From assembly GCF_045037415.1 (NCBI RefSeq), contig NZ_CP173438.1: a DNA stretch of 64,000 bases. One strand, given 5' to 3'. The first letter of the stretch is position 1. Every line of letters starts with the position of its first letter. The notes under the pieces are model-generated. The model made no database searches. It had not been told where the DNA came from and was given only the letters and a program-made list of their open reading frames with translations. Of this stretch, positions 19,061-47,013 are shown in pieces. Position numbers and translations under genes: made by a program. Source of the DNA: Escherichia coli. GTDB taxonomy: Bacteria; Pseudomonadota; Gammaproteobacteria; Enterobacterales; Enterobacteriaceae.

Positions 19061-19080
19061 GGATAATTTGCATATTTCTT

Positions 19081-19110
19081 GCCGGATGCGGCGTAAACGC
19101 TCTATCCGAC
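19081..19110. repeat. REP (palindromic unit) element
   Basis: gccggatgcggcgtaaacgctctatccgac matches the REP consensus family. Confidence 0.5.
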
Positions 19111-19119
19111 AACGTAAAC

Positions 19120-20784
19120 TTACTCGCCTACTTTCGCCCAGGTATCACGCAGCCCAACGGTGCGGTTAAATACCGGTTTTTCCGCCGTAGAATGGCGGCT
19201 GTCGAGGCAGAAGTAACCTTCACGCTCAAACTGGAATGCTTTACCCGCAACCGCATCTTTCAGCGACGGTTCAGCAAAGCCCTGTTTGATCACCAGCGAT
19301 TCCGGGTTAATCACCGACAGGAAATCATCCGCAGCACCAGGGTTCGGCACGCTGAACAGACGGTCATACAAACGGATTTCAACCGGCAGCGCATGTGCCG
19401 CGCTCACCCAGTGAATAACACCTTTGACTTTACGACCATCTGCCGGATCTTTGCTTAAGGTGTCGGCGTCATAAGTACAGAAGATGGTGGTGATATTGCC
19501 TTCGGCATCTTTCTCCACGCGTTCTGCCTTAATGACGTAAGCATTACGCAGACGCACTTCTTTACCCAGCACCAGACGTTTGTACTGCTTGTTAGCTTCT
19601 TCGCGGAAATCGGCGCGATCGATCCAAATCTCACCGCTAAATGGCACCTGACGGCTGCCCATTTCCGGTTTATTCGGATGGTTCGGCATGGTAACCATTT
19701 CGCCTTCGCCCTGGTAGTTTTCGATAACCAGTTTCACCGGATCGATAACCGCCATTGCGCGCGGCGCATTTTCGTTGAGATCTTCACGGATGCAGGATTC
19801 CAGTGACGCCATCTCAATGGTGTTGTCCTGCTTGGTCACACCAATGCGTTTGCAGAACTCACGAATAGAAGCCGCAGTGTAACCACGACGACGCAGACCA
19901 GAAATGGTCGGCATACGCGGGTCATCCCAGCCTTCAACGTGCTTGTCGGTCACCAGCAGGTTCAGCTTACGCTTGGACATCACAGTGTATTCCAGATTCA
20001 GGCGCGAGAATTCGTACTGGCGCGGGTGAACAGGAATGGTGATGTTGTCCAGTACCCAGTCGTACAGACGACGGTTGTCCTGGAACTCAAGCGTACACAG
20101 AGAGTGCGTAATACCTTCCAGCGCATCGCTGATGCAGTGGGTGAAGTCGTACATCGGGTAGATGCACCACTTGTTGCCAGTCTGGTGGTGTTCAGCAAAC
20201 TTAATGCGGTACAGCACCGGATCGCGCATCACGATAAACGGCGAAGCCATGTCGATTTTCGCACGCAGGCAGGCTTTACCTTCTTCAAAACCGCCGGTAC
20301 GCATTTTCTCGAACAGCGCCAGGTTCTCTTCAACGCTGCGATCGCGGTACGGGCTGTTTTTACCCGGCTGCGTCAAGGTGCCGCGGTATTCGCGGATCTG
20401 TTCCGGCGTCAGTTCATCAACGTACGCCAGGCCTTTATTGATCAGTTCGATCGCATAGGCGTGGAGCTGATCAAAATAATCGGAGGAGTAACGGACGTTA
20501 CCAGACCAGTGAAAACCTAACCACTCTACGTCGTTTTTGATCGAATCGACATACTCGATATCTTCTTTTACCGGGTTAGTGTCGTCGAAACGCAGGTTGC
20601 ACTGGCCTTTATAGTCCTGGGCGATCCCGAAGTTCAGGCAGATAGATTTCGCATGGCCAATATGCAGATAGCCATTCGGCTCCGGCGGGAAACGGGTGTG
20701 TACTGTGGTGTGCTTACCACTGGCCAGATCTTCATCGATGATCTGACGGATAAAGTTAGTCGGGCGGGCTTCTGCCTCACTCAT
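19120..20784 (-). CDS. glnS: Glutaminyl-tRNA synthetase
   Basis: 554 aa; class I HIGH motif ([11 protein letters not shown]) and VMSKR (KMSKS-type). Confidence 0.95.
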
Positions 20785-21003
20785 CGTGGATTCCTCAAAG
20801 CGTAAACAACGTATAACGGCGTATGATCTTATAAGCGGGACAGGCTGACAACTGTTAGTTAGCGAAAAAATGGTTTTGCGTAAGATATTGGGGCGTTTTC
20901 TGCGCTACTGCCAGCAGATCCTCGCGCTGGAAACGTAAGGCCAAACGTCGCCAGCCTGACGCATTTATTAAATTTCCGGATGAGCTGGCCGCAGAGTCGT
21001 AGA

Positions 21004-21765
21004 TTAGTCGGCTATGATTAAACGCGTCGACAAGGACGCAAGCGTTCTACGCGTCTGCCCATCAAGCTGACTATCCGTAATAATCTCTGTCAGTTCATTA
21101 AGATGCGCGATATTAAACAGCGACCATGAACCGTATTTTGAGCTGTCAGCCAGGAGAATTTTGCGCGAAGCATGCGCGATAAGATCGCGTTTTAGTGCGG
21201 CTTTCTCTTCCGTGGGTGCTGTAATACCCTTTTCAAGATCCCAGCTGTTACAGCTTAAAAATGCCACGTCCGGCCAGGTATTTTGCAGCAATTTACGACC
21301 ATGTTCGCCAATGCAGGACTGGCTGGAGTCGTCAATACGTCCGCCGATAATCGTCACTTCAATTTGCTTGAATTCAGCCAAAAAAAGCGCGATATGCAGG
21401 TCGCTTGTGATCACGCGAAGCGGTAAATGTGTAATCTGCCGCGCAAGTTCAATCATTGTCGTACCGGCATCAAGGACGACGGAATCCCCCGCTTTGACCA
21501 TTGACGCCGCTGCGCTGGCGATGGCATGTTTTTCCGCCAGGCTGCGCTGCATTTTCTCATGGGTAGTCGGTTGGGTAGGAATAAACCGGTTGAGAGTCAC
21601 ACCGCCGTGTGTACGGCTGATAACACCCTGCTCATCGAGTTTTATCAGGTCTCGACGAATCGTAGCCGGCGACGCATTGGTTACCGCCACCAGCTCATCT
21701 ACGGTGACCAGATTATGGCTTTTCAGGTAATCCATGATCTGCTCTAACCGGTTATATCCCTTCAT
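21004..21765 (-). CDS. DeoR-family transcriptional regulator
   Basis: 253 aa; N-terminal HTH ([20 protein letters not shown]), DeoR-type C-terminal sensor domain; start 1 nt after upstream stop. Confidence 0.85.
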
Positions 21766-21766
21766 T

Positions 21767-22753
21767 TTATTCTCGCGAAATCTGCATTGCTAACTGGATG
21801 GAAACTGCCATGCTCTCAGACTTGGCTTTTCCTGTCCAGGCAATATCAAACGCGGTGCCGTGGTCGGCAGAAGTGCGAATAAATGGCAACCCGGCGGTGA
21901 TATTCACCCCATCATAAAATCCAAGCAGTTTTAAAGGGATATGCCCCTGATCGTGGTACATAGCCACTACCATATCGAATAGCCCTTCATGGCATTGCAT
22001 AAACACGGTATCTGGCGGGCACGGGCCAGTAACATCAATATCTTCGGCCTGCATTGCTTCAATCGCAGGCGCGATAATCTCGATTTCCTCAGTGCCGAAT
22101 AAACCATGTTCCCCTGCATGTGGATTTACACCCGCCACGGCAATACGCGGACGCTCAATACCAACACGTTTCAGGAAGTGGTTCGCAACTCGAATAACCG
22201 TTTTGACCCTTTCACCATTCAAAGTATCCAGGAATTTACGCAGTGAGATGTGAGTCGAAATATGGATAACCTTGAGCTTCTCGGTATAGAGCACCATCGC
22301 GTACTCTTTGCTGCCGGTAAGATGGGCCAGCAATTCCGTATGCCCCGGATAGTTATGCCCGCCAAGATGCAGCGCTTCTTTATTCAGCGGCGCAGTGGCT
22401 ATGGCTTTCACCTCGCCTGATAAGGCCAGAGCCGTTGCACGTTTGATACAGCGATACGCTAAATCGCCTGCCACAGCCTGTACCACTCCGGGTGTCAGCG
22501 CATCGGGGTTAGCCAGCGGCTCATCCATCACGTTAATCACGCCGGGAGCAAAATGGGCGTCGCACACCTTTTGAATGACGCGTAACTCTGCCTGCGGCGT
22601 GATATTCATCGCCATAATACGTCGCAGCGTGCGCACACAGCCCACCACCACCACCGGGGCACCAGCAAGCCCGGCTTCGCTCAGGGATTTAATAATGATC
22701 TCCGGGCCAATACCCGCCGGATCGCCCATCGTTACCGCAATAATATTATTCAC
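21767..22753 (-). CDS. PdxA-family NAD-dependent dehydrogenase (PdxA2-like)
   Basis: 328 aa; [15 protein letters not shown] and [17 protein letters not shown] motifs; GTG start with gaggag RBS inside the kinase 3' end. Confidence 0.85.
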
Positions 22754-23981
22754 TACGCTTCTCCTCGATAAAATTCAGAACCTGATGCAACGTGGTCTCA
22801 TCGCCAAACCCACCGGCTTTCGTCATCACCGAACGGGACCAGACGCCGCCCAGAAAGTGACCGTATGGAACGCATTGCGCCACCTTCCCCGTAATACGAA
22901 ATCCGGTCGCGCCTAACGCACTGGCTGTTGCCATTGCGACATCACCACCAGAGAGATAAAGCGCATCGGGCATTGCGCAAAGCAGAACTTGCCGGGTAAG
23001 TTCGCCAAGAAACCGGCAAATTTTTTCCCCAAGTGCAGCGCGACTCATCTGCCAACGCTGGCAAAGGGTGTCGATCTGATGCCTTGCTACAGAATCGTTA
23101 CAGGTGTGGACAATACAGTGGTCGCCTTTCTGCAAGGCCTGCACAATACGCGCGTCATAGTCACTGGCATTGCCTGCCAGAATGTGTTCAACATCGACGT
23201 ATATCTGTGTGATACGTGGGTGTGAATGAAGTGTGGCGATCTGCCGTTGAGCGATTTCGCTCATTGAACCAATAATGGCCAGCACGGTGGGTGGCGGCAT
23301 AATCGCGGAGCGCCGGGCAACGGCATCACAAATACCAGCGGAGCCGACCAGCAGCAGCGGTTGTTTAGCCTGCATCACAGCGGCAGCGATGCGATCCAGG
23401 TCGCTGTCCGTCTGCGCATCTATCACGCCAATCCACGGTTGCTCATAAGACAAATGGCTGAGCTGAGAAACCGTAACGGGCTGGCATGGAATGGCCGTCT
23501 GCAACCGGATGATGTCCGCAATTCGGGCGCTCAATACCGGGGTTTTCGGATCGCTAGCAAACTCGGTTTCCGTTATCCGCACACCGTTTACCCAACACTC
23601 ACCGGCCACTGTGGTCCTTCCCGCCTGAGGAAATGCGGGGGCAACCACTGCGCCCGTTATACCGCATGCCTTCATCAGGGCTTCAATTTCTGCGCCGATA
23701 TTGCCTCGCAGCGTGGAATCTATCTTTTTAATCACGAGCGGCGGGTTATTCGCCAGAGGGAGATGACTCATCAGCGAGGTTATTTTCATCGCCGCCAGCT
23801 TAGGATCCATCGCCCGACTGTCGCTGTTAATCACCCATACGCTGGCATCACCGCGATAAGGCATTTCAAAGGCCACATCAACTGTATGCCCCACCTGCGC
23901 CAGGCTTACCCCCGCGTCGTTGGCTCCCGTGAAATCATCGGCAACGATGAGAATGCTCGGCTTAGTGATTCCCTTTTCCAT
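22746..23981 (-). CDS. DUF1537 four-carbon acid-sugar kinase family protein (OtnK/DtnK-like)
   Basis: ORF starts at TTG 24023; best start is ATG 23981 (ggag RBS 5 nt upstream); ILIVADDFTGANDAG N-terminal motif. Confidence 0.8.
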   Translation of the reverse strand: MEKGITKPSILIVADDFTGANDAGVSLAQVGHTVDVAFEMPYRGDASVWVINSDSRAMDPKLAAMKITSLMSHLPLANNPPLVIKKIDSTLRGNIGAEIEALMKACGITGAVVAPAFPQAGRTTVAGECWVNGVRITETEFASDPKTPVLSARIADIIRLQTAIPCQPVTVSQLSHLSYEQPWIGVIDAQTDSDLDRIAAAVMQAKQPLLLVGSAGICDAVARRSAIMPPPTVLAIIGSMSEIAQRQIATLHSHPRITQIYVDVEHILAGNASDYDARIVQALQKGDHCIVHTCNDSVARHQIDTLCQRWQMSRAALGEKICRFLGELTRQVLLCAMPDALYLSGGDVAMATASALGATGFRITGKVAQCVPYGHFLGGVWSRSVMTKAGGFGDETTLHQVLNFIEEKRSE

Positions 23982-24019
23982 CATCACTCCAGGTTGTTTT
24001 ATGATAACAATGATTATAT

Positions 24020-24033
24020 TCAATCATGATTGA
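24020..24033. promoter_or_regulatory. Candidate operator palindrome 1 in divergent promoter
   Basis: Perfect 14-bp palindrome tcaatcatgattga upstream of the kinase operon. Confidence 0.4.
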
Positions 24034-24116
24034 TTAAATGTGAGCAAGCTCAAGTTATTAATCACTCGAATAAATTATAAAATTAGACCATGTTACGTAG
24101 GCTACGGCATTTTGAA

Positions 24117-24132
24117 TGATTGAATTCAATCA
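24117..24132. promoter_or_regulatory. Candidate operator palindrome 2 in divergent promoter
   Basis: Perfect 16-bp palindrome tgattgaattcaatca ending 19 bp before the ADH GTG start; shares the TGATTGA half-site with palindrome 1. Confidence 0.4.
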
Positions 24133-24150
24133 CCAGAAGAGAGGTTATTT

Positions 24151-25308
24151 GTGGTAATTATCAATAGCACGATACTGAGCGGCGCAGGCGCTATCCCTTC
24201 CCTGACGTCGCTCTTACCCGACATCAGAAAAATGCTGCTGGTCACTGACCGTAATATTGCGCAGCTCGACGGTGTGCAGCAGATTCGCGCCTTACTGGAA
24301 AAGCACTGCCCGCAGGTTAACGTTATCGATAATGTGCCCGCAGAGCCCACGCATCATGATGTGCGCCAGCTAATGGATGCCCTTGGCGATGCCTCTTTTG
24401 ATGTGGTGGTCGGGATCGGCGGTGGCAGCGTGTTGGATGTGGCGAAGCTGCTATCGGTGCTTTGCCATCCACAATCACCGGGGCTGGATGCGCTGCTTGC
24501 GGGTGAAAAACCGACTCAGCGGGTGCAATCATGGTTGATTCCTACAACCGCCGGAACCGGCTCAGAAGCCACGCCGAATGCGATTCTGGCAATCCCTGAG
24601 CAAAGCACGAAGGTGGGTATTATTTCCCAGGTGCTGTTACCAGACTATGTGGCGCTTTTCCCGGAACTGACCACCAGTATGCCCGCGCATATTGCGGCGT
24701 CCACGGGCATTGATGCTCTTTGCCACTTACTGGAGTGTTTTACCGCGACCGTGGCAAATCCGGTCAGCGATAACGCGGCGCTGACTGGGTTAAGTAAACT
24801 TTTCCGGCACATTCAACCCGCCGTGAACGATCCTCAGGATCTGCGCGCAAAACTGGAAATGCTGTGGGCGTCTTACTATGGCGGCGTAGCGATAACCCAT
24901 GCGGGCACGCATCTCGTTCATGCGCTCTCCTACCCGTTAGGTGGCAAATATCATCTGCCGCATGGCGTCGCGAATGCCATCTTGCTGGCGCCGTGCATGG
25001 CGTTTGTTCGCCCCTGGGCGGTCGAGAAATTTGCCCAGGTCTGGGATTGCATTCCCGATGCGGAAACCGCCCTGAGCGCGGAAGAAAAATCTCATGCCCT
25101 GGTGACCTGGTTACAGGCATTAGTCAATCAACTCAAGCTACCCAACAATCTCGCGGATCTCGGCGTACCGCCAGAGGATATTGCCTCTCTGAGCGAGGCG
25201 GCACTGAACGTGAAGCGCCTTATGAACAATGTGCCGTGCCAGCTTGATCTACAGGACGTACAGGCCATTTACCAAACACTGTTTCCGCAACATCAATTTA
25301 AGGAATAA
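24151..25308 (+). CDS. Iron-containing (group III) alcohol dehydrogenase family oxidoreductase
   Basis: 385 aa; GIGGGSVLDVAK and TTAGTGSE motifs; GTG start with RBS agagagg. Confidence 0.85.
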   Translation: MVIINSTILSGAGAIPSLTSLLPDIRKMLLVTDRNIAQLDGVQQIRALLEKHCPQVNVIDNVPAEPTHHDVRQLMDALGDASFDVVVGIGGGSVLDVAKLLSVLCHPQSPGLDALLAGEKPTQRVQSWLIPTTAGTGSEATPNAILAIPEQSTKVGIISQVLLPDYVALFPELTTSMPAHIAASTGIDALCHLLECFTATVANPVSDNAALTGLSKLFRHIQPAVNDPQDLRAKLEMLWASYYGGVAITHAGTHLVHALSYPLGGKYHLPHGVANAILLAPCMAFVRPWAVEKFAQVWDCIPDAETALSAEEKSHALVTWLQALVNQLKLPNNLADLGVPPEDIASLSEAALNVKRLMNNVPCQLDLQDVQAIYQTLFPQHQFKE

Positions 25309-25311
25309 ATC

Positions 25312-26199
25312 ATGCCGAAAACCATTGAAGGTGTATTAACCGCTATCGTCACCCCGTTTACCGCGACCGGCAGTCTGAATATCCCGGCGTTAAAAGTGCA
25401 GGTGAATCGTCAACTGGAAGCGGGTAACGCGATTTTTTGCGGCGGCACCAACGGCGAGTTTTTTGTGTTGAATGAACAGGAGAAGCTCAGCGTTACGCAA
25501 ACCTGCGTGGATGAAGTGGCTGGTCGTGCGCCAGTCGTGGCACACATTGGCGAGATCTCTACGCGCGAAACGATTCGTCTGGGTCAGCAGATTGAAAAAC
25601 TTGGCGTAGATGCCGTGTCGGTCATTGCCCCTTACTTCGTACCGCTGAAACAGGAAGAGTTGATTGCGCATTACAGCGCAATTGCCGACACACTGAGCAT
25701 TCCGATGTTTCTCTATAACATCCCGGCCCGCACTGGCAATACGATCCAGCCAGAAACCGCGCGTGCTCTGGCGTCGCACCCCAATATCATTGGGATTAAA
25801 GACAGCGACGGAAGCGACGAAAGCCTGAAGGGTTTTCTCGATGCGGTGCGCGACATTGACGGCTTTAATGTGCTCAACGGCCCGGATTCGCTGATCCATA
25901 AAGGGTTTGTCGAGGGATGTTCAGCCTGTATCTCTGGGCTCGCCAACGTCGCGCCGCGAGAAATCAATGCCATCTGGTCTCGCTTCCATGCCGGTGATAT
26001 TGAAGGGTCTTATGAAGCACAGGAGAGTGTAACGGGCCTGCGTACCGATCTTTATAAAGTAGCATTCTCCCCGGCTGCGGTGAAAAAAGCGTTGCAGCTT
26101 ATGGGGCATGATGTTGGTGATAGCCGCTACGCGGTTAATTTCACGCCTGAACAGATCAGCGAGATTCAACAAATTATTCGTCATTATAACATTAATTAA
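25312..26199 (+). CDS. DapA/NAL-family class I (Schiff-base) aldolase
   Basis: 295 aa; TPF...GTNGE and GIKDS (Schiff-base lysine) motifs; 3 nt after ADH stop. Confidence 0.85.
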   Translation: MPKTIEGVLTAIVTPFTATGSLNIPALKVQVNRQLEAGNAIFCGGTNGEFFVLNEQEKLSVTQTCVDEVAGRAPVVAHIGEISTRETIRLGQQIEKLGVDAVSVIAPYFVPLKQEELIAHYSAIADTLSIPMFLYNIPARTGNTIQPETARALASHPNIIGIKDSDGSDESLKGFLDAVRDIDGFNVLNGPDSLIHKGFVEGCSACISGLANVAPREINAIWSRFHAGDIEGSYEAQESVTGLRTDLYKVAFSPAAVKKALQLMGHDVGDSRYAVNFTPEQISEIQQIIRHYNIN

Positions 26200-26258
26200 A
26201 TTAACTCTATTATCCAGCCCGCTATAAAGTTTAGATAAAGAGAATAAAGGATTACCCC

Positions 26259-27017
26259 ATGTTTTTGTGGTTTATGCAGCCAGATATCTGGCTCACTTTA
26301 ATTACCCTCACCTTTCTGGAAATTATTCTTGGGGTGGATAATATTATTTTTCTTTCACTGGTGGTGGCAAAACTTCCGTTATCACAACAAAATATGGCGC
26401 GTAAACTGGGTTTAAGCTGCGCGATGATTATGCGGATATTATTGCTGATATCCATTGCGTGGCTTTCACATATTACCCAGCCGCTTTTTACCGTGCTGAC
26501 GCTGGAGATTTCGTTCCGCACGTTGATTCTGCTCGGGGGCGGGCTGTTCCTGATTTATAAAGCGATACAGGAGATACGCGAAGAGCTGTCGCCCGCGCAG
26601 GAAGACGAACATGGCAGCGGATCGCGGCAACTGTCGTTGTGCGGTGCCATTGTACAGATAATGCTGCTCGATATCGTGTTTAGCCTGGATTCGGTGATCA
26701 CCGCCGTCGGCCTTTCTCAGCATATATTTATCATGATTGCCGCCGTAATGATTGCCGTCGGTGTCATGATGTTTGCGGCGAAAACAATTGGTGATTTCGT
26801 TAACGCCACGCCGTCAATAAAAATACTGGCGTTAACCTTTTTATTGTTTGTCGGTGTATTGCTGGTTGCCGATAGTCTCAACATTCATATTGCCAAAGAG
26901 TATCTCTACTTCGCGATATTTTTCTCATTAAGTGTTGAGACACTCAATATTATCCGTGAAAGAAAAAATAAAAAAGTTTCGACATTGATCGAAACGCATG
27001 AATCGCACTCGCATTAA
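26259..27017 (+). CDS. TerC-family integral membrane protein
   Basis: 252 aa; paired TerC motifs ILGVDNIIF and DIVFSLDSV; visibly more AT-rich than neighbours. Confidence 0.8.
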   Translation: MFLWFMQPDIWLTLITLTFLEIILGVDNIIFLSLVVAKLPLSQQNMARKLGLSCAMIMRILLLISIAWLSHITQPLFTVLTLEISFRTLILLGGGLFLIYKAIQEIREELSPAQEDEHGSGSRQLSLCGAIVQIMLLDIVFSLDSVITAVGLSQHIFIMIAAVMIAVGVMMFAAKTIGDFVNATPSIKILALTFLLFVGVLLVADSLNIHIAKEYLYFAIFFSLSVETLNIIRERKNKKVSTLIETHESHSH

Positions 27018-27052
27018 TAAATCTATTACCAACTTTAAGATGGAGTCTAACT

Positions 27053-28222
27053 ATGTCTGTAGCCCTTATTCGTGACGGCGTCATCCGTCCATCCGAAAAC
27101 GATTCGCATGTGCTTACCGCCATGCTGCCCTCGTCCTGCCCGCAAAACCACGCGGCGAATATTCTGCCTTTGCCGGATGGCGCGTTAATGTGCGTCTGGT
27201 TTGCGGGAACGCAGGAAGGTATTGCCGATATTTCTGTCTGGGGATCGCGATTGCCCGCTGGCGGAATGCAGTGGAGCGATGCGGCCAAACTTTCCCACGA
27301 TGACACGCGTTCAGAGCAAAACCCGGTGCTGTTTCTCGCGCCGGATAACGTGCTGTGGCTCCTATGGACCGCACAAATATCCGGTAATCAGGACACCGCC
27401 ATCGTCCGCTACCGTAAGTCAGACGACCTCGGACAAACCTGGGGCGAGATTGCCACCCTGCTTGATAAACCCGGTACGTTCATTCGACAGCCAATCACGG
27501 TGCTTGATAACGGCAACTGGCTGCTGCCCGTCTTTTATTGCCGTACCCAACCCGGCGAAAAATGGGTCGGCAATGATGATATCAGCGCAGTGAAAATTTC
27601 CGCTGACGGTGGTCACTCCTGGCGCGATGTCGAGGTGCCGCAAAGTCTCGGCTGTGTTCATATGAATATCACAATGTTGCACGACGGTACGTTGGTTGCT
27701 CTCTTTCGCAGCCGTTGGGCAGACAACATCTATATCAGCCATTCAGTGGACAACGGCGAGAGTTGGTCGGTGCCGCAAGCAACCGAATTGCCCAACAACA
27801 ATTCGTCTATTCAGGTAACGACGCTTGCCAGCGGCGAACTGGCGCTGGTGTACAACGCGATGAGTGCGGCAGGCGCAGTAGAACGTCGCGCGTCGCTTTA
27901 TGACGAAATCGACGATGGCGACGACAGCCGCAAAGAACCGACAGCCGTCGGACGCTCCGCTTTCTGGGGTGCCCCACGCGCGCCGATGACGGTAGCGATT
28001 TCTGCCGATGGTGGGAAAAGCTGGTCGTGGCGGCGCAATCTCGATGAAGGCGACGGCTACTGCATGACCAACAATTCCCTGGAAAAGCTAAATCGTGAGT
28101 TCTCCTACCCCAGCATCAAACAAAGCCCGGACGGTACGCTACATATCGCTTACACCTGGTGGCGTCAGGCCATCAAGTACGTACGCATCTCCCCCGAGTG
28201 GGTTAAGGGGCAGGCATCATGA
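27053..28222 (+). CDS. BNR/Asp-box repeat protein, sialidase-fold beta-propeller, no signal peptide
   Basis: 389 aa; four Asp-boxes (SDDLGQTW, SADGGHSW, SVDNGESW, SADGGKSW); N-terminus lacks a signal peptide. Confidence 0.8.
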   Translation: MSVALIRDGVIRPSENDSHVLTAMLPSSCPQNHAANILPLPDGALMCVWFAGTQEGIADISVWGSRLPAGGMQWSDAAKLSHDDTRSEQNPVLFLAPDNVLWLLWTAQISGNQDTAIVRYRKSDDLGQTWGEIATLLDKPGTFIRQPITVLDNGNWLLPVFYCRTQPGEKWVGNDDISAVKISADGGHSWRDVEVPQSLGCVHMNITMLHDGTLVALFRSRWADNIYISHSVDNGESWSVPQATELPNNNSSIQVTTLASGELALVYNAMSAAGAVERRASLYDEIDDGDDSRKEPTAVGRSAFWGAPRAPMTVAISADGGKSWSWRRNLDEGDGYCMTNNSLEKLNREFSYPSIKQSPDGTLHIAYTWWRQAIKYVRISPEWVKGQAS

Positions 28223-28689
28223 TTATCGGTAATCTCAACCATTTGTCGCTGGCGGGGCTTCCTGCCTGGGTGAGAAATATTCTGCTGCGCCCGGAGTGTT
28301 CGTTATCGGCGTTATCCACCAGAGAGGACGGTCGCTGGCAACCTGAAGGATGTCGGTGGTTCTGCTCGCTGGGAACTTCAGACACGCAACCCGCCGAACT
28401 TCGCCATACGGAGTATCACCATCTATGGGCCGATATACAGGTGGTGATTACTGGTTGTGAGGGCATTAATGCGGGAACGCGGCCCATCGCTCGCGAAAAC
28501 GATGAAGAACGTAAGCCCGATCTGTTTATCGCCCCATCCCCTGAAAACAGTGTCGCCATCACCCTACACGCCGGTGATTTCGCCGTCTTTATGCCTGAGG
28601 AACCTCACCAGGCACTGTGCGCAATTGGCACGGCTACTTCAATACGCAAAGCGGTCTTTAAAGTACCGCGCGACATGCTGGAAGCCTAA
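28219..28689 (+). CDS. YhcH/YjgK/YiaL (DUF386) family protein, NanQ-like
   Basis: 156 aa; GDFAVFMPEEPH and KVPRDMLEA resemble the YhcH family as I recall it; ATGA overlap with the upstream stop. Confidence 0.8.
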   Translation: MIIGNLNHLSLAGLPAWVRNILLRPECSLSALSTREDGRWQPEGCRWFCSLGTSDTQPAELRHTEYHHLWADIQVVITGCEGINAGTRPIARENDEERKPDLFIAPSPENSVAITLHAGDFAVFMPEEPHQALCAIGTATSIRKAVFKVPRDMLEA

Positions 28690-28702
28690 AAGGAGAGAAA
28701 AA

Positions 28703-29983
28703 ATGACAATGGAAATGATCCTGGCATTAGGAATACTGGTCCTGATGATCGTGCTGATCATGTCGGACAAAATGCCTTTTGGCGCACCGCCACTGCTTGC
28801 GTGTTTATTGCTGGTTGTATCGGGACTTTCGACCGTTCAACAGGCTTTTGCCGGATTCGTCAATCCAAGCGTGGTGATGATTGCAGGGTTTATGGTGGTC
28901 ATGGCGGCGCTACAAAAAACCCGGCTTATCAGCAACGTTAAATCTGCGATGATAAGCCTGGTCAATAAAGGCAGTTACCGCAGCTATGGGCTGTTATTAG
29001 TCATTGTTATGCTGGGTGCCAGTCTTGCCGGCACCGGAGCGACCGGTTATTACGTGCTAATTCTGTCGCTGGTATCCACCATTCCGTACAGTAAAAAGCT
29101 ACCAACATCGAAATTAATGATGCCCCTGGGATTTGCCACCAACCACCCGCTTCTTCCTATCAATCTCGCGCTTCTCTTTGGCGTTACGGCGACCGTACTC
29201 GAAACCGCGGGGTTTCATCAGGCGATTTCGATGGGGCGCTTTGCGCTGGTGAATCTCATCATGTCAGCGGCTTTCCTCGCATGGAGTCTTATTGCCTACC
29301 GTTTTCTTCCGGATCATCCCATTGCGGATGCTTCCGAGGATGCGCTGGCGGCACGCGAGGAAACGTTTAACGCCCTTCCTGCCTGGAAAGAATATTGCAC
29401 TATTGCCGCATTCGCTGTCAGCGTTATCGGCATGATGCTAATGAACATTCTGGGAAATATCGCCTTCGTTATTCCGGGTCTTGCGGGTGCGTTTGTTCTG
29501 ATGATCGATGTACTGGACTTCAAAGAAGTTCGCGATCATATGGGGGCTCCGGTCATTTTAATGATGGCGGGGGTGATCGGTGTAGCTGATGCACTGGCGG
29601 GCACCGGCTTTACGGCGATGGTTGGCGATGCCGTTGCAGGTGTGCTCGGTTCTGGCGTCTCACCGTTTGTATTTATTGTCGCCTTTGCTTTGCTTACCAG
29701 TACCTGCGCCACCTTCACGGGTTCGAATATGGGGTCAGTATATATTTTTGCCCCCATCGCCATTGCCGCCTGTACTAGCCTTGGGCTTAACCCGACCGCT
29801 GCCGCGATTGCGGTGGTGATTTCTGGCTGGAATGGCGGCTATATGCCTATTGACGGAATGCCAGCCATGATCCTCGGAATGGGGAAATACAAACTTCCCG
29901 AATTCTGGGTGTTCTCTGTACCAATGTATCTCATCCGCATTCTGGCGCTTTGTGCAGGCGCTGTTTTTATCTTCCCAATGTAA
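28703..29983 (+). CDS. Polytopic permease, ion-transporter-superfamily-like (family unresolved)
   Basis: ORF 28457..29983 trimmed to ATG 28703 (aaggagag RBS); about 12 hydrophobic segments, 426 aa. Confidence 0.75.
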   Translation: MTMEMILALGILVLMIVLIMSDKMPFGAPPLLACLLLVVSGLSTVQQAFAGFVNPSVVMIAGFMVVMAALQKTRLISNVKSAMISLVNKGSYRSYGLLLVIVMLGASLAGTGATGYYVLILSLVSTIPYSKKLPTSKLMMPLGFATNHPLLPINLALLFGVTATVLETAGFHQAISMGRFALVNLIMSAAFLAWSLIAYRFLPDHPIADASEDALAAREETFNALPAWKEYCTIAAFAVSVIGMMLMNILGNIAFVIPGLAGAFVLMIDVLDFKEVRDHMGAPVILMMAGVIGVADALAGTGFTAMVGDAVAGVLGSGVSPFVFIVAFALLTSTCATFTGSNMGSVYIFAPIAIAACTSLGLNPTAAAIAVVISGWNGGYMPIDGMPAMILGMGKYKLPEFWVFSVPMYLIRILALCAGAVFIFPM

Positions 29984-29991
29984 TCTCAGAC

Positions 29992-30071: not shown

Positions 30072-32018
30072 TTACTTTTTGATTTCATACAGCGGTGTTT
30101 GACCCGCCACAACATGGCCCTGAGCTTTAATGATAAGGCCGCTGAAATCATCGATATTGCTGCAAACCACCGGGCTAATCATCGAACGGGCGTTAGCGTT
30201 CAGGTAATCCAGATCCATTTCCAGAATCGGTTGCCCTGCGCTTACCTGCGCGCCCTCTTCCACCAGACGTTTAAAGCCTTTACCTTCCAGCGCTACGGTG
30301 TCGATACCCATATGGACGACGATCTCCGCGCCTTTTTCGGTTTCCAGACAGAACGCGTGGTTGGTGTTGAAGATTTTCACGATTGTTCCTGCGGCTGGTG
30401 ATACGACGATTTTATCTGTCGGTTTCACCGCCACACCGTCACCCACCGCTTTGCTGGCGAATGCTTCGTCAGGAATCTGATCCAGTGCCACAACATCCCC
30501 GGTAATCGGCGATACCAGCTCCGCGATAGATACCGCGTTTGGTACAGCCTGCGGTTTTGCTACAGGAGCGGCAGTTGCCGGAGTTGCTTCAGCTGACGCA
30601 GCGGCTACCGGACCACGGGCAACGACTTTCTTCATCGCATCGCCGATGGATTCTGCTTTCGCGCCAACAATCACCTGAATAGTCTGTTTGTTCAGTTTTA
30701 CTACCCCAGAAGCACCCAGACGTTTACACATCGCATCGTTGACGCGAGCTGAGTCAACCACGGTAAGGCGCAGACGAGTAATACAGGCGTCAATGGCTTT
30801 CAGGTTGTCAGTACCGCCAACCGCAGCAATATAGTTGGTTGCCAGTTGATTGAGACCTTCTTCAGTATTGCTGTTAGCCTCTTCAGTAACGATCTCGTCT
30901 TCTTTATCTTCACGACCCGGCGTTTTCAGGTTGAACATGCGGATAACCAAACTGAACACCACGAAGTAGATAGCGAAGAAGACAACCCCCATCACCAGCA
31001 GCATCCAGACGTTCTGGCTGGCGGCCGGCAGGTTATACATCAACGCGTAGTCGATAGCCCCCGCAGAGAAAGAGAAGCCGGCATGGATACCCAGCAACGT
31101 TGCCACAAACAGGCTGATACCGGTCAGCAGTGCGTGCAGGAGGTACAGCAGCGGTGCAAGGAACATGAACAGGAATTCCAGCGGCTCAGTCACACCGGTC
31201 AGGAACGCAGTAACAGCAACAGAAAGCAGCATCCCGCCAACCATCGGACGACGCTCTTTCGGTGCTGCGAAGTACATCGCCAGCGCCGCACCCGGCAGGC
31301 CGAACATCATAATCGGGAAGAAGCCGGACATGAACATCCCCGCGGTGCCGTCACCGGCATAGAAGCGGTTGATATCACCGTGGAAAACCGTTCCCGCCGC
31401 GTTGGTGAATTCACCAATCTGGAACCAGGCGATGGTGTTCAGCACCTGATGCAGACCGGTTGGGATCAGCAGACGGTTGATGAAACCAAAGATACCGGAA
31501 CCCAGCGCGCCCGCAGAAACGATCCACTCGCCGCCTGCATGGATAGCGTGCTGTACCGGTGGCCAGACGTAACCAAAAATGGCCGCCAGCACCAGACAGA
31601 AGAAGCCGGTGGCTATCGGCACAAAGCGTTTGCCGCCGAAGAAGCTCAGGAAGTCCGGCAGTTTAATATCGGACCAACGGTTATAGGCTGCGCCACCAAC
31701 CAGACCGGTAATGATACCCGCCAGTACACCCATGTTAATTTCTGGGTTGATGGTCACCATCGCTTTGGTTAACACAAAGTAACCTACCGCACCCGCCAGT
31801 GCCGCCGCACCTGCGCTGTCTTTCGACCAGCTGGATGCCACGCCGATGGCGAATATTAATGCGAGGTTATCAAAAATCGCACCGCCCGCCTGGGCAATAA
31901 ACGCAACGTTAAGTAAATCTGGCTGACCGAATCGCAGCAACAGCGCCGCCACCGGCAGCACCGCGATAGGGAGCTGTAACGCCCTACCGAGTCGCTGGAA
32001 AAAACCTAAAATATTCAT
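30072..32018 (-). CDS. nagE: PTS N-acetylglucosamine-specific EIICBA
   Basis: 648 aa; EIIC membrane domain followed by EIIB and EIIA domains. Confidence 0.95.
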   Translation of the reverse strand: MNILGFFQRLGRALQLPIAVLPVAALLLRFGQPDLLNVAFIAQAGGAIFDNLALIFAIGVASSWSKDSAGAAALAGAVGYFVLTKAMVTINPEINMGVLAGIITGLVGGAAYNRWSDIKLPDFLSFFGGKRFVPIATGFFCLVLAAIFGYVWPPVQHAIHAGGEWIVSAGALGSGIFGFINRLLIPTGLHQVLNTIAWFQIGEFTNAAGTVFHGDINRFYAGDGTAGMFMSGFFPIMMFGLPGAALAMYFAAPKERRPMVGGMLLSVAVTAFLTGVTEPLEFLFMFLAPLLYLLHALLTGISLFVATLLGIHAGFSFSAGAIDYALMYNLPAASQNVWMLLVMGVVFFAIYFVVFSLVIRMFNLKTPGREDKEDEIVTEEANSNTEEGLNQLATNYIAAVGGTDNLKAIDACITRLRLTVVDSARVNDAMCKRLGASGVVKLNKQTIQVIVGAKAESIGDAMKKVVARGPVAAASAEATPATAAPVAKPQAVPNAVSIAELVSPITGDVVALDQIPDEAFASKAVGDGVAVKPTDKIVVSPAAGTIVKIFNTNHAFCLETEKGAEIVVHMGIDTVALEGKGFKRLVEEGAQVSAGQPILEMDLDYLNANARSMISPVVCSNIDDFSGLIIKAQGHVVAGQTPLYEIKK

Positions 32019-45376: not shown

Positions 45377-46915
45377 ATGGCTTTTGCCTCATTAATTGAA
45401 CGCCAGCGCATTCGCCTGCTGCTGGCGTTATTATTCGGTGCCTGCGGAACGCTGGCCTTCTCTCCTTACGACGTCTGGCCTGCGGCGATTATTTCGCTGA
45501 TGGGACTTCAGGCGCTGACCTTTAACCGCCGTCCACTCCAGTCTACCGCTATTGGCTTTTGCTGGGGATTTGGCCTCTTTGGCAGCGGTATTAACTGGGT
45601 CTATGTCAGCATCGCGACCTTTGGCGGAATGCCTGGCCCGGTTAACATCTTCCTGGTGGTACTGCTGGCGGCGTATTTGTCGCTGTATACCGGACTGTTT
45701 GCTGGCGTGCTGTCGCGTCTGTGGCCGAAAACCACCTGGCTGCGCGTGGCGATTGCCGCCCCTGCTCTCTGGCAAGTGACCGAGTTTCTGCGCGGTTGGG
45801 TACTTACAGGCTTCCCGTGGTTACAGTTCGGCTATAGCCAGATTGATGGCCCGTTAAAAGGGCTGGCACCGATAATGGGCGTGGAAGCCATTAACTTCCT
45901 GCTGATGATGGTTAGTGGCCTGCTGGCACTGGCGTTGGTCAAACGCAACTGGCGTCCGCTGGTGGTGGCCGTCGTGCTGTTTGCCCTTCCCTTCCCGCTG
46001 CGTTACGTCCAGTGGTTTACCCCGCAACCGGAGAAAACCATTCAGGTTTCGATGGTTCAGGGCAATATTCCGCAATCGCTGAAATGGGACGAAGGCCAGC
46101 TTCTTAATACGCTGAAGATTTACTACAACGCAACGGCACCGCTGATGGGCAAATCATCGCTGATTATCTGGCCGGAGTCGGCGATAACCGATCTGGAAAT
46201 TAATCAGCAACCGTTCCTCAAAGCTCTGGACGGTGAGTTGCGCGATAAAGGTAGCTCGCTGATCACCGGGATTGTCGACGCGCGTCTCAATAAACAGAAC
46301 CGCTACGATACCTACAACACCATCATCACACTGGGTAAAGGCGCACCGTACAGCTATGAATCAGCCGATCGCTATAACAAAAACCATCTGGTGCCGTTTG
46401 GCGAGTTTGTCCCACTGGAGTCGATTCTGCGTCCATTAGCACCGTTCTTTGATTTGCCGATGTCGTCATTCAGCCGCGGACCATATATTCAGCCACCGCT
46501 GTCGTTGAATGGCATTCAACTTACTGCGGCCATTTGCTACGAAATCATTCTCGGCGAGCAAGTGCGCGATAACTTCCGCCCGGATACCGACTATCTGCTG
46601 ACTATCTCCAACGATGCGTGGTTTGGTAAGTCTATTGGTCCATGGCAGCACTTCCAGATGGCGCGAATGCGTGCGCTGGAGCTGGCGCGCCCACTGTTGC
46701 GCAGCACCAACAACGGCATTACGGCGGTGATTGGCCCGCAGGGTGAGATTCAGGCGATGATCCCGCAGTTCACCCGCGAGGTGTTAACCACTAACGTAAC
46801 GCCGACCACCGGACTCACCCCGTACTCACGTACCGGCAACTGGCCACTGTGGGTGCTGACGGCACTGTTTGGCTTTGCCGCTGTACTGATGAGTCTGCGT
46901 GCTCGCAAACGTTAA
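45377..46915 (+). CDS. lnt: Apolipoprotein N-acyltransferase
   Basis: 512 aa; N-terminal polytopic domain plus C-terminal nitrilase-like domain. Confidence 0.95.
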
Positions 46916-46918
46916 TGT

Positions 46919-46947
46919 GCCTGATGCGCGACGCTTATCAGGCCTAC
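46919..46947. repeat. REP element
   Basis: gcctgatgcgcgacgcttatcaggcctac. Confidence 0.45.
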
Positions 46948-47013
46948 GCGATTTTTGCAATATGTTGAATTTTCGCGATTTTGTAGGATAAAGCGTACTT
47001 TTTCAACACGCTC

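Follow-up and report, generated by a model that had tools for sequence, protein, structure and literature searches.

What do the nine genes that lie between glnS and nagE in this Escherichia coli genome do, and do they work as one system or as two? The genes are carried by contig NZ_CP173438.1 (assembly GCF_045037415.1), within the 64,000-nucleotide stretch of DNA analyzed here (the window). A preliminary description of the sequence had taken them for a single, uncharacterized acidic-sugar system, with uptake of an ulosonic-type compound, aldol cleavage releasing pyruvate and a threonate route to dihydroxyacetone phosphate (DHAP). The single-system view is supported by the co-clustering of the genes in other genomes, by a control region shared between the two operons and by the carboxylate transporters of the clusters, and the nine genes probably make up one pathway with D-threonate and DHAP at its end. 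The word uncharacterized stands for the six plus-strand genes, which have no assigned function in the literature searched, but not for the minus-strand operon, which corresponds to a known D-threonate route. The family calls of the preliminary description were each upheld by NCBIfam or Pfam profile searches, and Pfam labels of orthologous clusters are in accord with them; for the six plus-strand genes neither of the findings that it had named as fatal, a pathway already known or failed family calls, was made. The best explanation overall is one inducible catabolic pathway in which a variable feeder module serves a constant lower pathway, a view for which confidence and doubt are in balance.

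The insert and its genes

BLAST of the K-12 locus against the window defines an insert of 9,128 bp (20861-29988) that stands in place of 43 bp of the K-12 glnS-nagE spacer. The flanking genes in the open reading frame (ORF) listing are glnS (19120-20784, minus strand) and nagE (30072-32018, minus strand). In K-12 strain MC1061, the two genes are neighbors with a gap of ~200 bp, which confirms the adjacency given in the preliminary description; the alignment added the exact boundaries of the insert. The nine ORFs that it had placed here, in two tight divergent operons, are all present, and the RefSeq annotation of a 100%-identical genome has the same nine genes. RefSeq names those of the minus strand as DeoR/GlpR regulator, D-threonate 4-phosphate dehydrogenase and dtnK, and those of the plus strand as iron-containing alcohol dehydrogenase, dihydrodipicolinate synthase family, TerC family, sialidase family, YhcH/YjgK/YiaL and SLC13 permease. 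The features of the insert are as follows.

20861..29988, no strand: whole insert relative to K-12 (BLAST, alignment with the K-12 locus, megablast distribution)
21004-21765, minus strand: DeoR/GlpR-family repressor, last gene of the minus operon and presumed regulator of both operons (NCBIfam, RefSeq)
21767-22753, minus strand: PdxA2, predicted D-threonate 4-phosphate dehydrogenase (decarboxylating), product DHAP and CO2 (NF002891, PDB matches)
22746-23981, minus strand: DtnK, predicted DUF1537 four-carbon acid-sugar kinase (D-threonate kinase) (NF047819, PDB 4XFM, RefSeq dtnK)
24011-24026, no strand: operator-like palindrome 1, TGATTATATTCAATCA (TGATT-N6-AATCA)
24039-24054, no strand: CRP-like site TGTGA-GCAAGC-TCAAG, between the two operators (read from the sequence)
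24117-24132, no strand: operator-like palindrome 2, TGATTGAATTCAATCA (TGATT-N6-AATCA; inverted repeat I6)
24151-25308, plus strand: iron-containing alcohol dehydrogenase (Fe-ADH), proposed reductase of a C4 aldehydo-acid to D-threonate (Fe-ADH family matches)
25312-26199, plus strand: DHDPS/NAL-superfamily class I aldolase, proposed to act on 2-keto-3-deoxy-heptarate (Dha, see below) (NCBIfam, alignment)
26259-27017, plus strand: TerC/YkoY-family membrane protein, possibly handling a divalent metal (TIGR03716)
27053-28222, plus strand: cytoplasmic six-bladed sialidase-fold protein (BNR_2; the propeller) with four Asp-boxes, proposed ketosidase or feeder enzyme (Pfam, AlphaFold2 (AF2), Foldseek)
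28219-28689, plus strand: YhcH/DUF386 protein, proposed anomerase, ring-opening helper or subunit of the propeller enzyme (TIGR00022, PDB)
28703-29983, plus strand: SLC13/DASS-family (Na_sulph_symp/CitMHS) anion permease, proposed to take up di- or tricarboxylates (TIGR00785, Pfam)

By megablast, the full island occurs in 1,047 of 5,426 complete E. coli genomes (about a fifth; 1,044 records with at least 99% identity), and its flanks occur in 5,424 of the 5,426. The insert lacks the hallmarks of a mobile genomic island: the ORF listing has no integrase, transposase or insertion sequence ORF in the insert, the tRNA search of the window found none at it, the Rfam search found no family in it and the repeat search found no flanking direct repeat of note around it. 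GC content is 0.50-0.56 in eight island genes and 0.443 in the TerC gene. The locus had been described as variable but not mobile, with a host-like composition apart from the TerC gene, and both statements hold. The island has been noted in B2 extraintestinal pathogenic E. coli (ExPEC) strains and in the adherent-invasive strain LF82 under the name "GR 6, nagE..glnS" (PMC12928451), and a "D-threonate metabolism region" is among the genes associated with colibactin-carrying Escherichia in a pangenome study (PMC9125672). The only papers on glnS-nagE islands that the literature search yielded are the genome paper of BEN2908 and the pangenome paper on colibactin.

The D-threonate pathway and its partner genes

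The D-threonate catabolic pathway of DtnK and PdxA2 reportedly goes back to Zhang et al. 2016. The route leads from D-threonate via 4-phospho-D-threonate to DHAP and CO2 (PMC10971088), and with the kinase and dehydrogenase activities plus a permease E. coli K-12 grows on D-threonate (PMC10079672). Judging by orthology, the minus operon is a member of this characterized pathway, because DtnK and PdxA2 both exceed their NCBIfam equivalog cut-offs. DtnK scores 531.3 bits against NF047819 (cut-off 450), with 3-oxo-tetronate kinase as the next-best family at only 103.9 bits, and 316 bits against the DUF1537 structure PDB 4XFM. PdxA2 scores 679.2 bits against NF002891 (cut-off 583), 581 bits against PDB 6E85 ("D-threonate 4-phosphate dehydrogenase") and 554 bits against PDB 2HI1 ("4-hydroxythreonine-4-phosphate dehydrogenase 2"). 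The operon is also like the known pathway in its translational coupling (dtnK and pdxA2 overlap by 8 bp), its DeoR-type regulator, which matches NCBIfam DeoR-family models all below their equivalog cut-offs, and its predicted products. Unlike the plain D-threonate pathway, the module of the island is joined through a shared control region to six genes that apparently make D-threonate in the cell. No explanation of the natural source of D-threonate was found in the literature.

A different use of the same two enzymes would be the detoxification or salvage of 4-hydroxy-L-threonine to 4-phosphohydroxy-L-threonine, a precursor of pyridoxal phosphate (PLP), with the other genes handling related toxic intermediates; the idea is said to originate with Thiaville et al. 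2016. Phosphorylation of 4-hydroxy-L-threonine is reported for the DUF1537 kinase STM0162, and the PdxA reaction for PdxA2 (PMC10971088, PMC9997740), and a MocR/PdxR-like regulator lies near one betaproteobacterial cluster. However, PdxA2 is classed under organic-acid catabolism and not PLP synthesis (PMC9997740), the NCBIfam equivalogs indicate D-threonate, and the layout is that of a catabolic system, in which anion transporters of high capacity are combined with a DeoR repressor and a CRP-like site. Salvage would also leave the sialidase-fold protein and the aldolase without a role, and it is very improbable here.

The minus and plus operons diverge from a 169-bp intergenic region between dtnK and the Fe-ADH gene. 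The two operator-like palindromes of this region lie 106 bp apart, the second just upstream of the Fe-ADH ribosome-binding site. TGATT-N6-AATCA has two copies in the whole 64 kb, both of them here (0.10 expected). The sequence at 24039-24054 may be a CRP site. Klebsiella, Yersinia, Aeromonas and Pectobacterium conserve both palindromes and the CRP-like site, Gilliamella only in part; in all five genera the TGTGA of the CRP-like site and part of its second half are invariant. DeoR-family repressors usually respond to a phosphorylated intermediate. The DeoR repressor of the island would bind both operators and control both operons, and repression would be relieved by a phosphorylated intermediate, most simply 4-phospho-D-threonate, which is the candidate inducer because it is the sole phosphorylated intermediate in the scheme and the family usually senses such compounds. 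The central CRP-like site would add catabolite control.

The partnership of the genes extends well beyond E. coli. ORFs were called in 80 genome loci and searched with the island proteins, and the counts given here refer to the 62 of them whose flanks were long enough. No more than 10 kb from the propeller gene lie the genes for the aldolase (51 of 62), Fe-ADH (51), PdxA2 (50), DtnK (46) and the DeoR regulator (45). The preliminary description had called for such a check of co-occurrence; the aldolase, Fe-ADH, DtnK and PdxA2 genes stay together across many genera with their order rearranged, as in Bacillus, Betaproteobacteria, Lonepinella and Lysinibacillus. The propeller is 63-86% identical in Klebsiella, Kosakonia, Pantoea, Erwinia, Pectobacterium, Dickeya, Yersinia, Aeromonas, Vibrio, Gilliamella, Lonepinella, Propionivibrio and the Bacillus pumilus group, with homologs of 47-50% identity in Amycolatopsis and the plant-pathogenic fungus Gaeumannomyces (tritici/avenae). 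An unplaced metagenome contig carries the kinase, Fe-ADH, PdxA, DHDPS, SDR, BNR_2 and DctPQM genes in a single run. On a fungal metagenome contig (L092, 8024-13403), BNR_2, DHDPS, PdxA and MFS genes stand together beside fungal transcription factors, which suggests conservation across kingdoms, or transfer. In Salmonella enterica subsp. salamae, a full cluster of the E. coli type lies near marRAB and not near glnS. That sialidase-like, DapA-like and ADH genes cluster with PdxA2/DUF1537 has been remarked upon before, without an assigned function in the passage concerned (PMC12928451, citing Thiaville 2016).

Citrobacter freundii has a cluster (L094, 4419-8829) in which DeoR-PdxA-DtnK diverges from FeADH-DHDPS, with a D-2-hydroxyacid dehydrogenase and a galactonate-type MFS transporter where the propeller, DUF386 and SLC13 genes would be. 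Judging by this variant, the same lower pathway seems to be reached by a second feeder route as well. Because C. freundii keeps the four lower-pathway genes while the feeder genes are swapped, the constant unit appears, from these gene neighborhoods, to be the aldolase, Fe-ADH, DtnK and PdxA2, whereas the feeder module and the transporter vary.

These neighborhoods also bear on whether the locus holds two independent systems side by side, namely a D-threonate operon and a separate operon for a sialic-acid-like or other sugar that does not reach D-threonate. The kinase, the dehydrogenase and a permease suffice for growth of K-12 on D-threonate (PMC10079672), and the SLC13 permease could simply import D-threonate. 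Against such a division, there is a single regulator gene, the paired operators span the divergent promoters, no nanK/nanE-type genes are there to dispose of a hexose fragment and the four lower-pathway genes are found together, in changing order, in different phyla. One pathway and not two is favored, as the four genes keep together in Gamma- and Betaproteobacteria and Bacillus and the fungal contig unites the propeller, aldolase and PdxA genes; two separate systems are improbable.

Within the same clusters, E. coli and other Enterobacteriaceae share 76-86% identity in the propeller and 53-60% in DtnK; by these comparisons the feeder propeller, supposedly accessory, appears much more tightly constrained than the kinase. 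In two Pantoea loci (L005, 4110-6451, and L021), PdxA2 is kept, but neither a kinase nor a DeoR gene was called in the gaps where they would be expected; the minus operon may have decayed locally. Genes look split into fragments in Leclercia adecarboxylata NCTC13032 (L016; PdxA2, DHDPS, SSF and DUF386) and in Kluyvera genomosp. 3 (L075; DtnK and BNR_2), through either pseudogenization or assembly frameshift errors.

The upper pathway and its candidate substrate

In the proposed one-pathway scheme, the SLC13 permease would import an acidic 2-ulosonic sugar (a diacid) or a small conjugate of it. The cytoplasmic propeller and the translationally coupled DUF386 protein would release or open the free 2-keto-3-deoxy acid, the DHDPS-like class I aldolase would split the acid to pyruvate and the C4 aldehydo-acid 2,3-dihydroxy-4-oxobutanoate, and Fe-ADH would reduce the latter to D-threonate. 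DtnK, by orthology, would then phosphorylate D-threonate and PdxA2, likewise by orthology, would oxidatively decarboxylate 4-phospho-D-threonate to DHAP and CO2. That the aldolase acts before the reductase is an even call.

The aldolase just misses the DapA equivalog (188.9 bits, cut-off 206.15) and falls far short of the NanA equivalogs (108.6 bits, cut-off 382; 142.3 bits, cut-off 281). It has the catalytic Lys and Tyr of class I enzymes of the DHDPS superfamily, as the conserved Lys163 and Tyr135 align with K161/Y133 of DapA and K165/Y137 of NanA. In the same alignment, Arg140 of the aldolase, within YNIPARTG (motif YNIPxRTG), takes the position of DapA R138, where NanA has Leu, and the Arg is kept in six of seven cluster homologs. 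In DapA, R138 holds the carboxylate of aspartate semialdehyde, which is likewise a C4 aldehydo-acid. The Fe-ADH gene adjoins the aldolase gene in 51 of the 62 loci. Its product is equidistant from FucO, 4-hydroxybutyrate dehydrogenase and ErcA (~210-220 bits each, all under the NCBIfam equivalog cut-offs), and its PDB matches are FucO and methanol dehydrogenases. The inclusion of 4-hydroxybutyrate dehydrogenase in this family counts in favor of the scheme, as the chemistry is the same conversion of an aldehydo-acid to a hydroxy-acid.

Since a pyruvate aldolase must yield a C4 aldehyde that can be reduced to D-threonate, the substrate would be a 2-keto-3-deoxy-heptarate. The likeliest such compound is inferred to be 3-deoxy-D-lyxo-hept-2-ulosaric acid (Dha), a sugar of the plant pectin rhamnogalacturonan-II (RG-II), although Dha specifically is put forward tentatively and is somewhat short of an even bet. 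Dha is sialic-acid-like and chiefly known from RG-II. In our own bookkeeping by Fischer projection, D-lyxo Dha gives exactly D-threonate after retro-aldol cleavage and reduction at C4, and the same bookkeeping applied to Kdo gives the known split to D-arabinose and pyruvate. The hosts of the cluster are mostly plant-associated or pectin-degrading (Pectobacterium, Dickeya, Erwinia, Pantoea, Kosakonia, the Bacillus pumilus group, Gilliamella, Lonepinella and the fungus Gaeumannomyces). Dha fits these hosts, and it fits the carboxylate transporters with their SiaP-like DctP protein, a KdgM/NanC-family porin in the Aeromonas cluster and a triose-phosphate isomerase gene beside the cluster of Formivibrio, the last of which agrees with DHAP as the product. 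In the gut, Dha could become available after the degradation of pectin by other bacteria.

The transporters are exchangeable. The SLC13 permease of the island has a weak DASS match (55.6 bits against TIGR00785, under the cut-off), and its orthologs carry Pfam Na_sulph_symp and CitMHS. In other genera it is replaced by SSF, TAXI-TRAP, DctPQM-TRAP, TctA or galactonate-type (ACS-type) MFS transporters. Apart from the sodium-solute symporter (SSF), the set consists mostly of organic-anion or carboxylate families (DASS, TAXI-TRAP, DctPQM, TctA and ACS-type MFS), and the DctP binding protein has its closest relatives among the SiaP sialic-acid binders. The PDB matches of the SDR and of the TAXI binding protein gave no clue to the ligand. 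In a Formivibrio metagenome-assembled genome (L088, 11419-13626), a methyl-accepting chemotaxis protein fused to a DctP-type TRAP solute-binding domain directly follows the cluster SDR gene and could be a chemoreceptor for the same carboxylate substrate.

The propeller is the least familiar member of the cluster. It matches Pfam BNR_2 (E 3.5e-65) but none of the NCBIfam sialidase models, and a single-sequence search of PDB gave a best E of 0.087; at the sequence level it falls outside GH33. The AF2 model, built on 30 diverse homologs (pLDDT 93.4), has its best structural matches by Foldseek in the GH33 sialidases 1EUS and 1WCQ (TM ~0.72, 15% identity), and in a profile search of PDB the Akkermansia-type exo-sialidases come first (E ~1e-16). 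The predicted fold is the six-bladed beta-propeller of GH33, with Asp-box repeats (S-x-D-x-G-x-T/S-W) at residues 123-130, 183-190, 231-238 and 317-324. The N-terminus, as read from the ORF translation, has no hydrophobic signal peptide. Arg219/221, Arg309 and Tyr352 are conserved, the last aligned to a Tyr of 9EOB by HMMER. GH33 enzymes have a nucleophilic Tyr with a Glu partner and an Asp as acid/base; in the propeller, Asp59 is conserved among close homologs, and the position expected for the Glu partner appears, by spacing only, to hold His/Gln203, and the mapping of the active site onto GH33 is provisional. The propeller and DUF386 genes overlap by 4 bp. The DUF386 protein belongs to the YhcH/YjgK/YiaL family (TIGR00022, 94.9 bits, cut-off 45.5), falls short of the NanQ equivalog NF040884 (90.6 bits, cut-off 160) and has PDB matches to 9JRR and 1JOP. 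Membership of the propeller in GH143 was considered and rejected, since GH143 is five-bladed and BT1020 is absent from the best 60 of 104 PDB profile matches (E up to 1).

Several observations sit poorly with the pathway as drawn, and with Dha as its substrate. None of the six plus-strand proteins reaches an NCBIfam equivalog cut-off, and the aldolase Arg is absent from a distant cluster (L090). The propeller is not a canonical GH33: its invariant His33, in the motif NHA(A/S)N, apparently occupies the site of the first Arg of the RIP motif, judged by position only. The known family of Dha-hydrolases, GH143, is five-bladed and unrelated to the propeller at the sequence level. Free Dha would need no glycosidase, yet the propeller is nearly always there; Dha may be imported as a ketoside, in the acid-labile Araf-(1,5)-Dha disaccharide, or as a lactone or anhydro form, or alternatively the propeller may catalyze something other than hydrolysis. 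The model does not explain the commonest variant elsewhere, which has an SSF symporter and an added SDR. It also leaves unexplained a mini-module of SSF, propeller and SDR only, which occurs in some Pantoea and one Enterobacter (L037-L040, L043, L044 and L083) with no aldolase, Fe-ADH, DtnK or PdxA2 gene nearby, and it does not account for the TerC and Nramp-like genes of the clusters. On the catabolism of Dha, no paper was found in either direction.

In a variant of the scheme, the lower pathway is the same and the substrate or chemistry is different. The substrate could be a D-xylo C7 2-keto-3-deoxy diacid, a 3-deoxy-aldarate or a conjugate not derived from pectin, and the propeller might be a hydratase, lyase or mutarotase and not a ketosidase. 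In favor of this variant, Citrobacter feeds the same lower pathway via a 2-hydroxyacid dehydrogenase without a propeller, the active-site residues of the propeller are non-canonical, the SDR and the Pantoea mini-module are unexplained, and a more distant cluster has an SBP_bac_5 ABC importer and an esterase, which suggest a conjugate. The plant-associated hosts and the SiaP-like binding protein, however, fit a sialic-acid-shaped plant sugar, and Dha is the only natural C7 2-ulosaric acid known to us that has a D-threo tail. This variant is unlikely, though it deserves to be taken seriously.

The sialidase fold, the NanQ-like DUF386 protein, the SSF and SiaP-like transporters and a lyase of the NanA superfamily would also suit the catabolism of a C8 or C9 ulosonic acid, such as Kdo, KDN or a sialic acid variant like 2,7-anhydro-Neu5Ac. 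Cleavage of Kdo, however, gives D-arabinose and that of KDN or Neu5Ac gives a hexose, neither of which connects to a C4 acid kinase; there are no NanK, NanE or pentose genes, and the scores of the aldolase and the DUF386 protein are far under the NanA and NanQ equivalog cut-offs. Such a substrate has hardly any likelihood.

The E. coli arrangement, with TerC and SLC13, is a minority variant (5 of the 62 loci). The SDR was rejected as a core step, being absent from E. coli, the Klebsiella oxytoca group, Gilliamella, Budvicia, Lonepinella and several betaproteobacterial clusters. In Pantoea rodasii, the mini-module (L037, 6256-11853) has as neighbors the genes of a sigma-54 activator and of a tartrate dehydrogenase; the dehydrogenase was discounted as part of the module since it has its own LysR regulator, and D-tartrate is presumably outside its substrate range. 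Larger neighbors (choline lyase, MetH, PbpC and helicases) were dismissed as unrelated and as differing between genomes.

The TerC protein scores 85 bits against TIGR03716, under the cut-off, and TerC is found near the cluster also in L003, L006, L009, L082 and L093. No Rfam match supports a yybP-ykoY Mn riboswitch before the TerC gene, and TerC is not a dedicated partner of SLC13, as it is found with ABC and TAXI-TRAP variants as well. Two unrelated families of the metal-transport type recur in or beside the cluster with different substrate transporters, namely TerC (five contexts) and an Nramp-like gene (Lysinibacillus); genes of these families lie at 26259-27017 of the window, L006 13056-13805, L009 2645-3688, L082 686-1423 and L072 8618-9970. 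The substrate might, for instance, enter the cell as a metal chelate.

Outside the insert, the chiP-glnS spacer differs from that of K-12, and an 82-bp segment of the K-12 spacer matches 46906-46987 of the window (84%, opposite strand). A weak Rfam match to naRNA4 (REP-like; E 0.23, far below gathering) lies at 19070-19111. The element at 19070-19111 and 46906-46987 is probably a repeat of the REP/BIME type.

Relation to known systems and significance

The sialic acid (nan) systems combine the NanA lyase, NanT, SiaPQM or SiaT transporters, the NanQ (YhcH) anomerase, the NanC porin and the NanM beta-propeller mutarotase. The island and its relatives resemble them in the DHDPS-superfamily pyruvate lyase, the DUF386 protein, the SSF and SiaP-like TRAP uptake, the KdgM/NanC porin (Aeromonas) and a beta-propeller. 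By contrast, neither the island nor the related loci annotated in detail have NanK or NanE genes, the scores of the lyase and of the DUF386 protein lie under the NanA and NanQ cut-offs, the propeller belongs to BNR_2, is cytoplasmic and is no Kelch-type NanM, and the fragment that remains once pyruvate is gone would be reduced, then phosphorylated by a C4 acid kinase and finally acted on by a decarboxylating dehydrogenase. In the glucarate/galactarate pathway, the GarL aldolase is followed by the tartronate-semialdehyde reductase GarR and the glycerate kinase GarK. The logic is the same as that proposed here, in that a 2-keto-3-deoxy diacid is split to pyruvate and an aldehydo-acid, which is reduced to a hydroxy-acid and phosphorylated. 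The families differ (a DHDPS-type and not an HpcH-type aldolase, Fe-ADH in place of a beta-hydroxyacid dehydrogenase, and a DUF1537 kinase), the proposed substrate is C7 and not C6, and the island has an extra decarboxylating step.

The closest comparisons for the propeller are two. GH143 is a propeller domain with five blades, part of a bimodular Bacteroides enzyme whose target is the chain of RG-II, the pectin in which Dha occurs (PMC6811678). The Dha-hydrolase of this family from Bacteroides thetaiotaomicron, BT1020, acts on the rare sugar that is proposed for the island and uses a Tyr/Glu retaining mechanism in a propeller fold, but it has five blades, compared to the six-bladed, GH33-type matches and four Asp-boxes of the island protein. 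The GH33 or Akkermansia-type sialidases (PDB 8AXI and 9EOB) share with the propeller six blades and four Asp-boxes; the conserved Tyr352 of the propeller aligns with a Tyr of the closest sialidase, and its Arg219/221 and Arg309 are conserved. The propeller differs from them in its ~15% identity, the lack of a secretion signal, a His33 that apparently replaces the RIP arginine and a gene that lies in a catabolic operon, coupled to DUF386. Thus, by sequence and predicted fold, the plus operon appears nan-like at the top and glucarate-like at the bottom, yet falls outside NanA, NanQ, GH33 and GH143. The pathway is assembled from familiar superfamilies with an uncharacterized branch of the sialidase superfamily; it represents not a new principle but a widely conserved metabolic gap.

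The furthest-reaching reading is that this is the first described pathway for Dha, running through a new cytoplasmic sialidase branch (His for the first Arg, with a DUF386 subunit), explaining natural D-threonate and forming a lineage-restricted trait of E. coli; taken as a whole, it is rather doubtful, if possible. If true, it would give a function to a conserved family, from E. coli to Bacillus and fungi, that is now annotated just as "sialidase family protein", would provide a natural feedstock for the D-threonate pathway and would fill in the fate of one of the rarest sugars of pectin. The same pathway would be common to plant pathogens, bee-gut symbionts and plant-pathogenic fungi. For E. 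coli, it would be a metabolic trait that sets a subset (reported as B2, ExPEC and colibactin-carrying strains) apart from K-12, O157 and BL21. These strains would scavenge a pectin sugar released by Bacteroides in the gut, with a bearing on gut colonization and on cross-feeding with Bacteroides.

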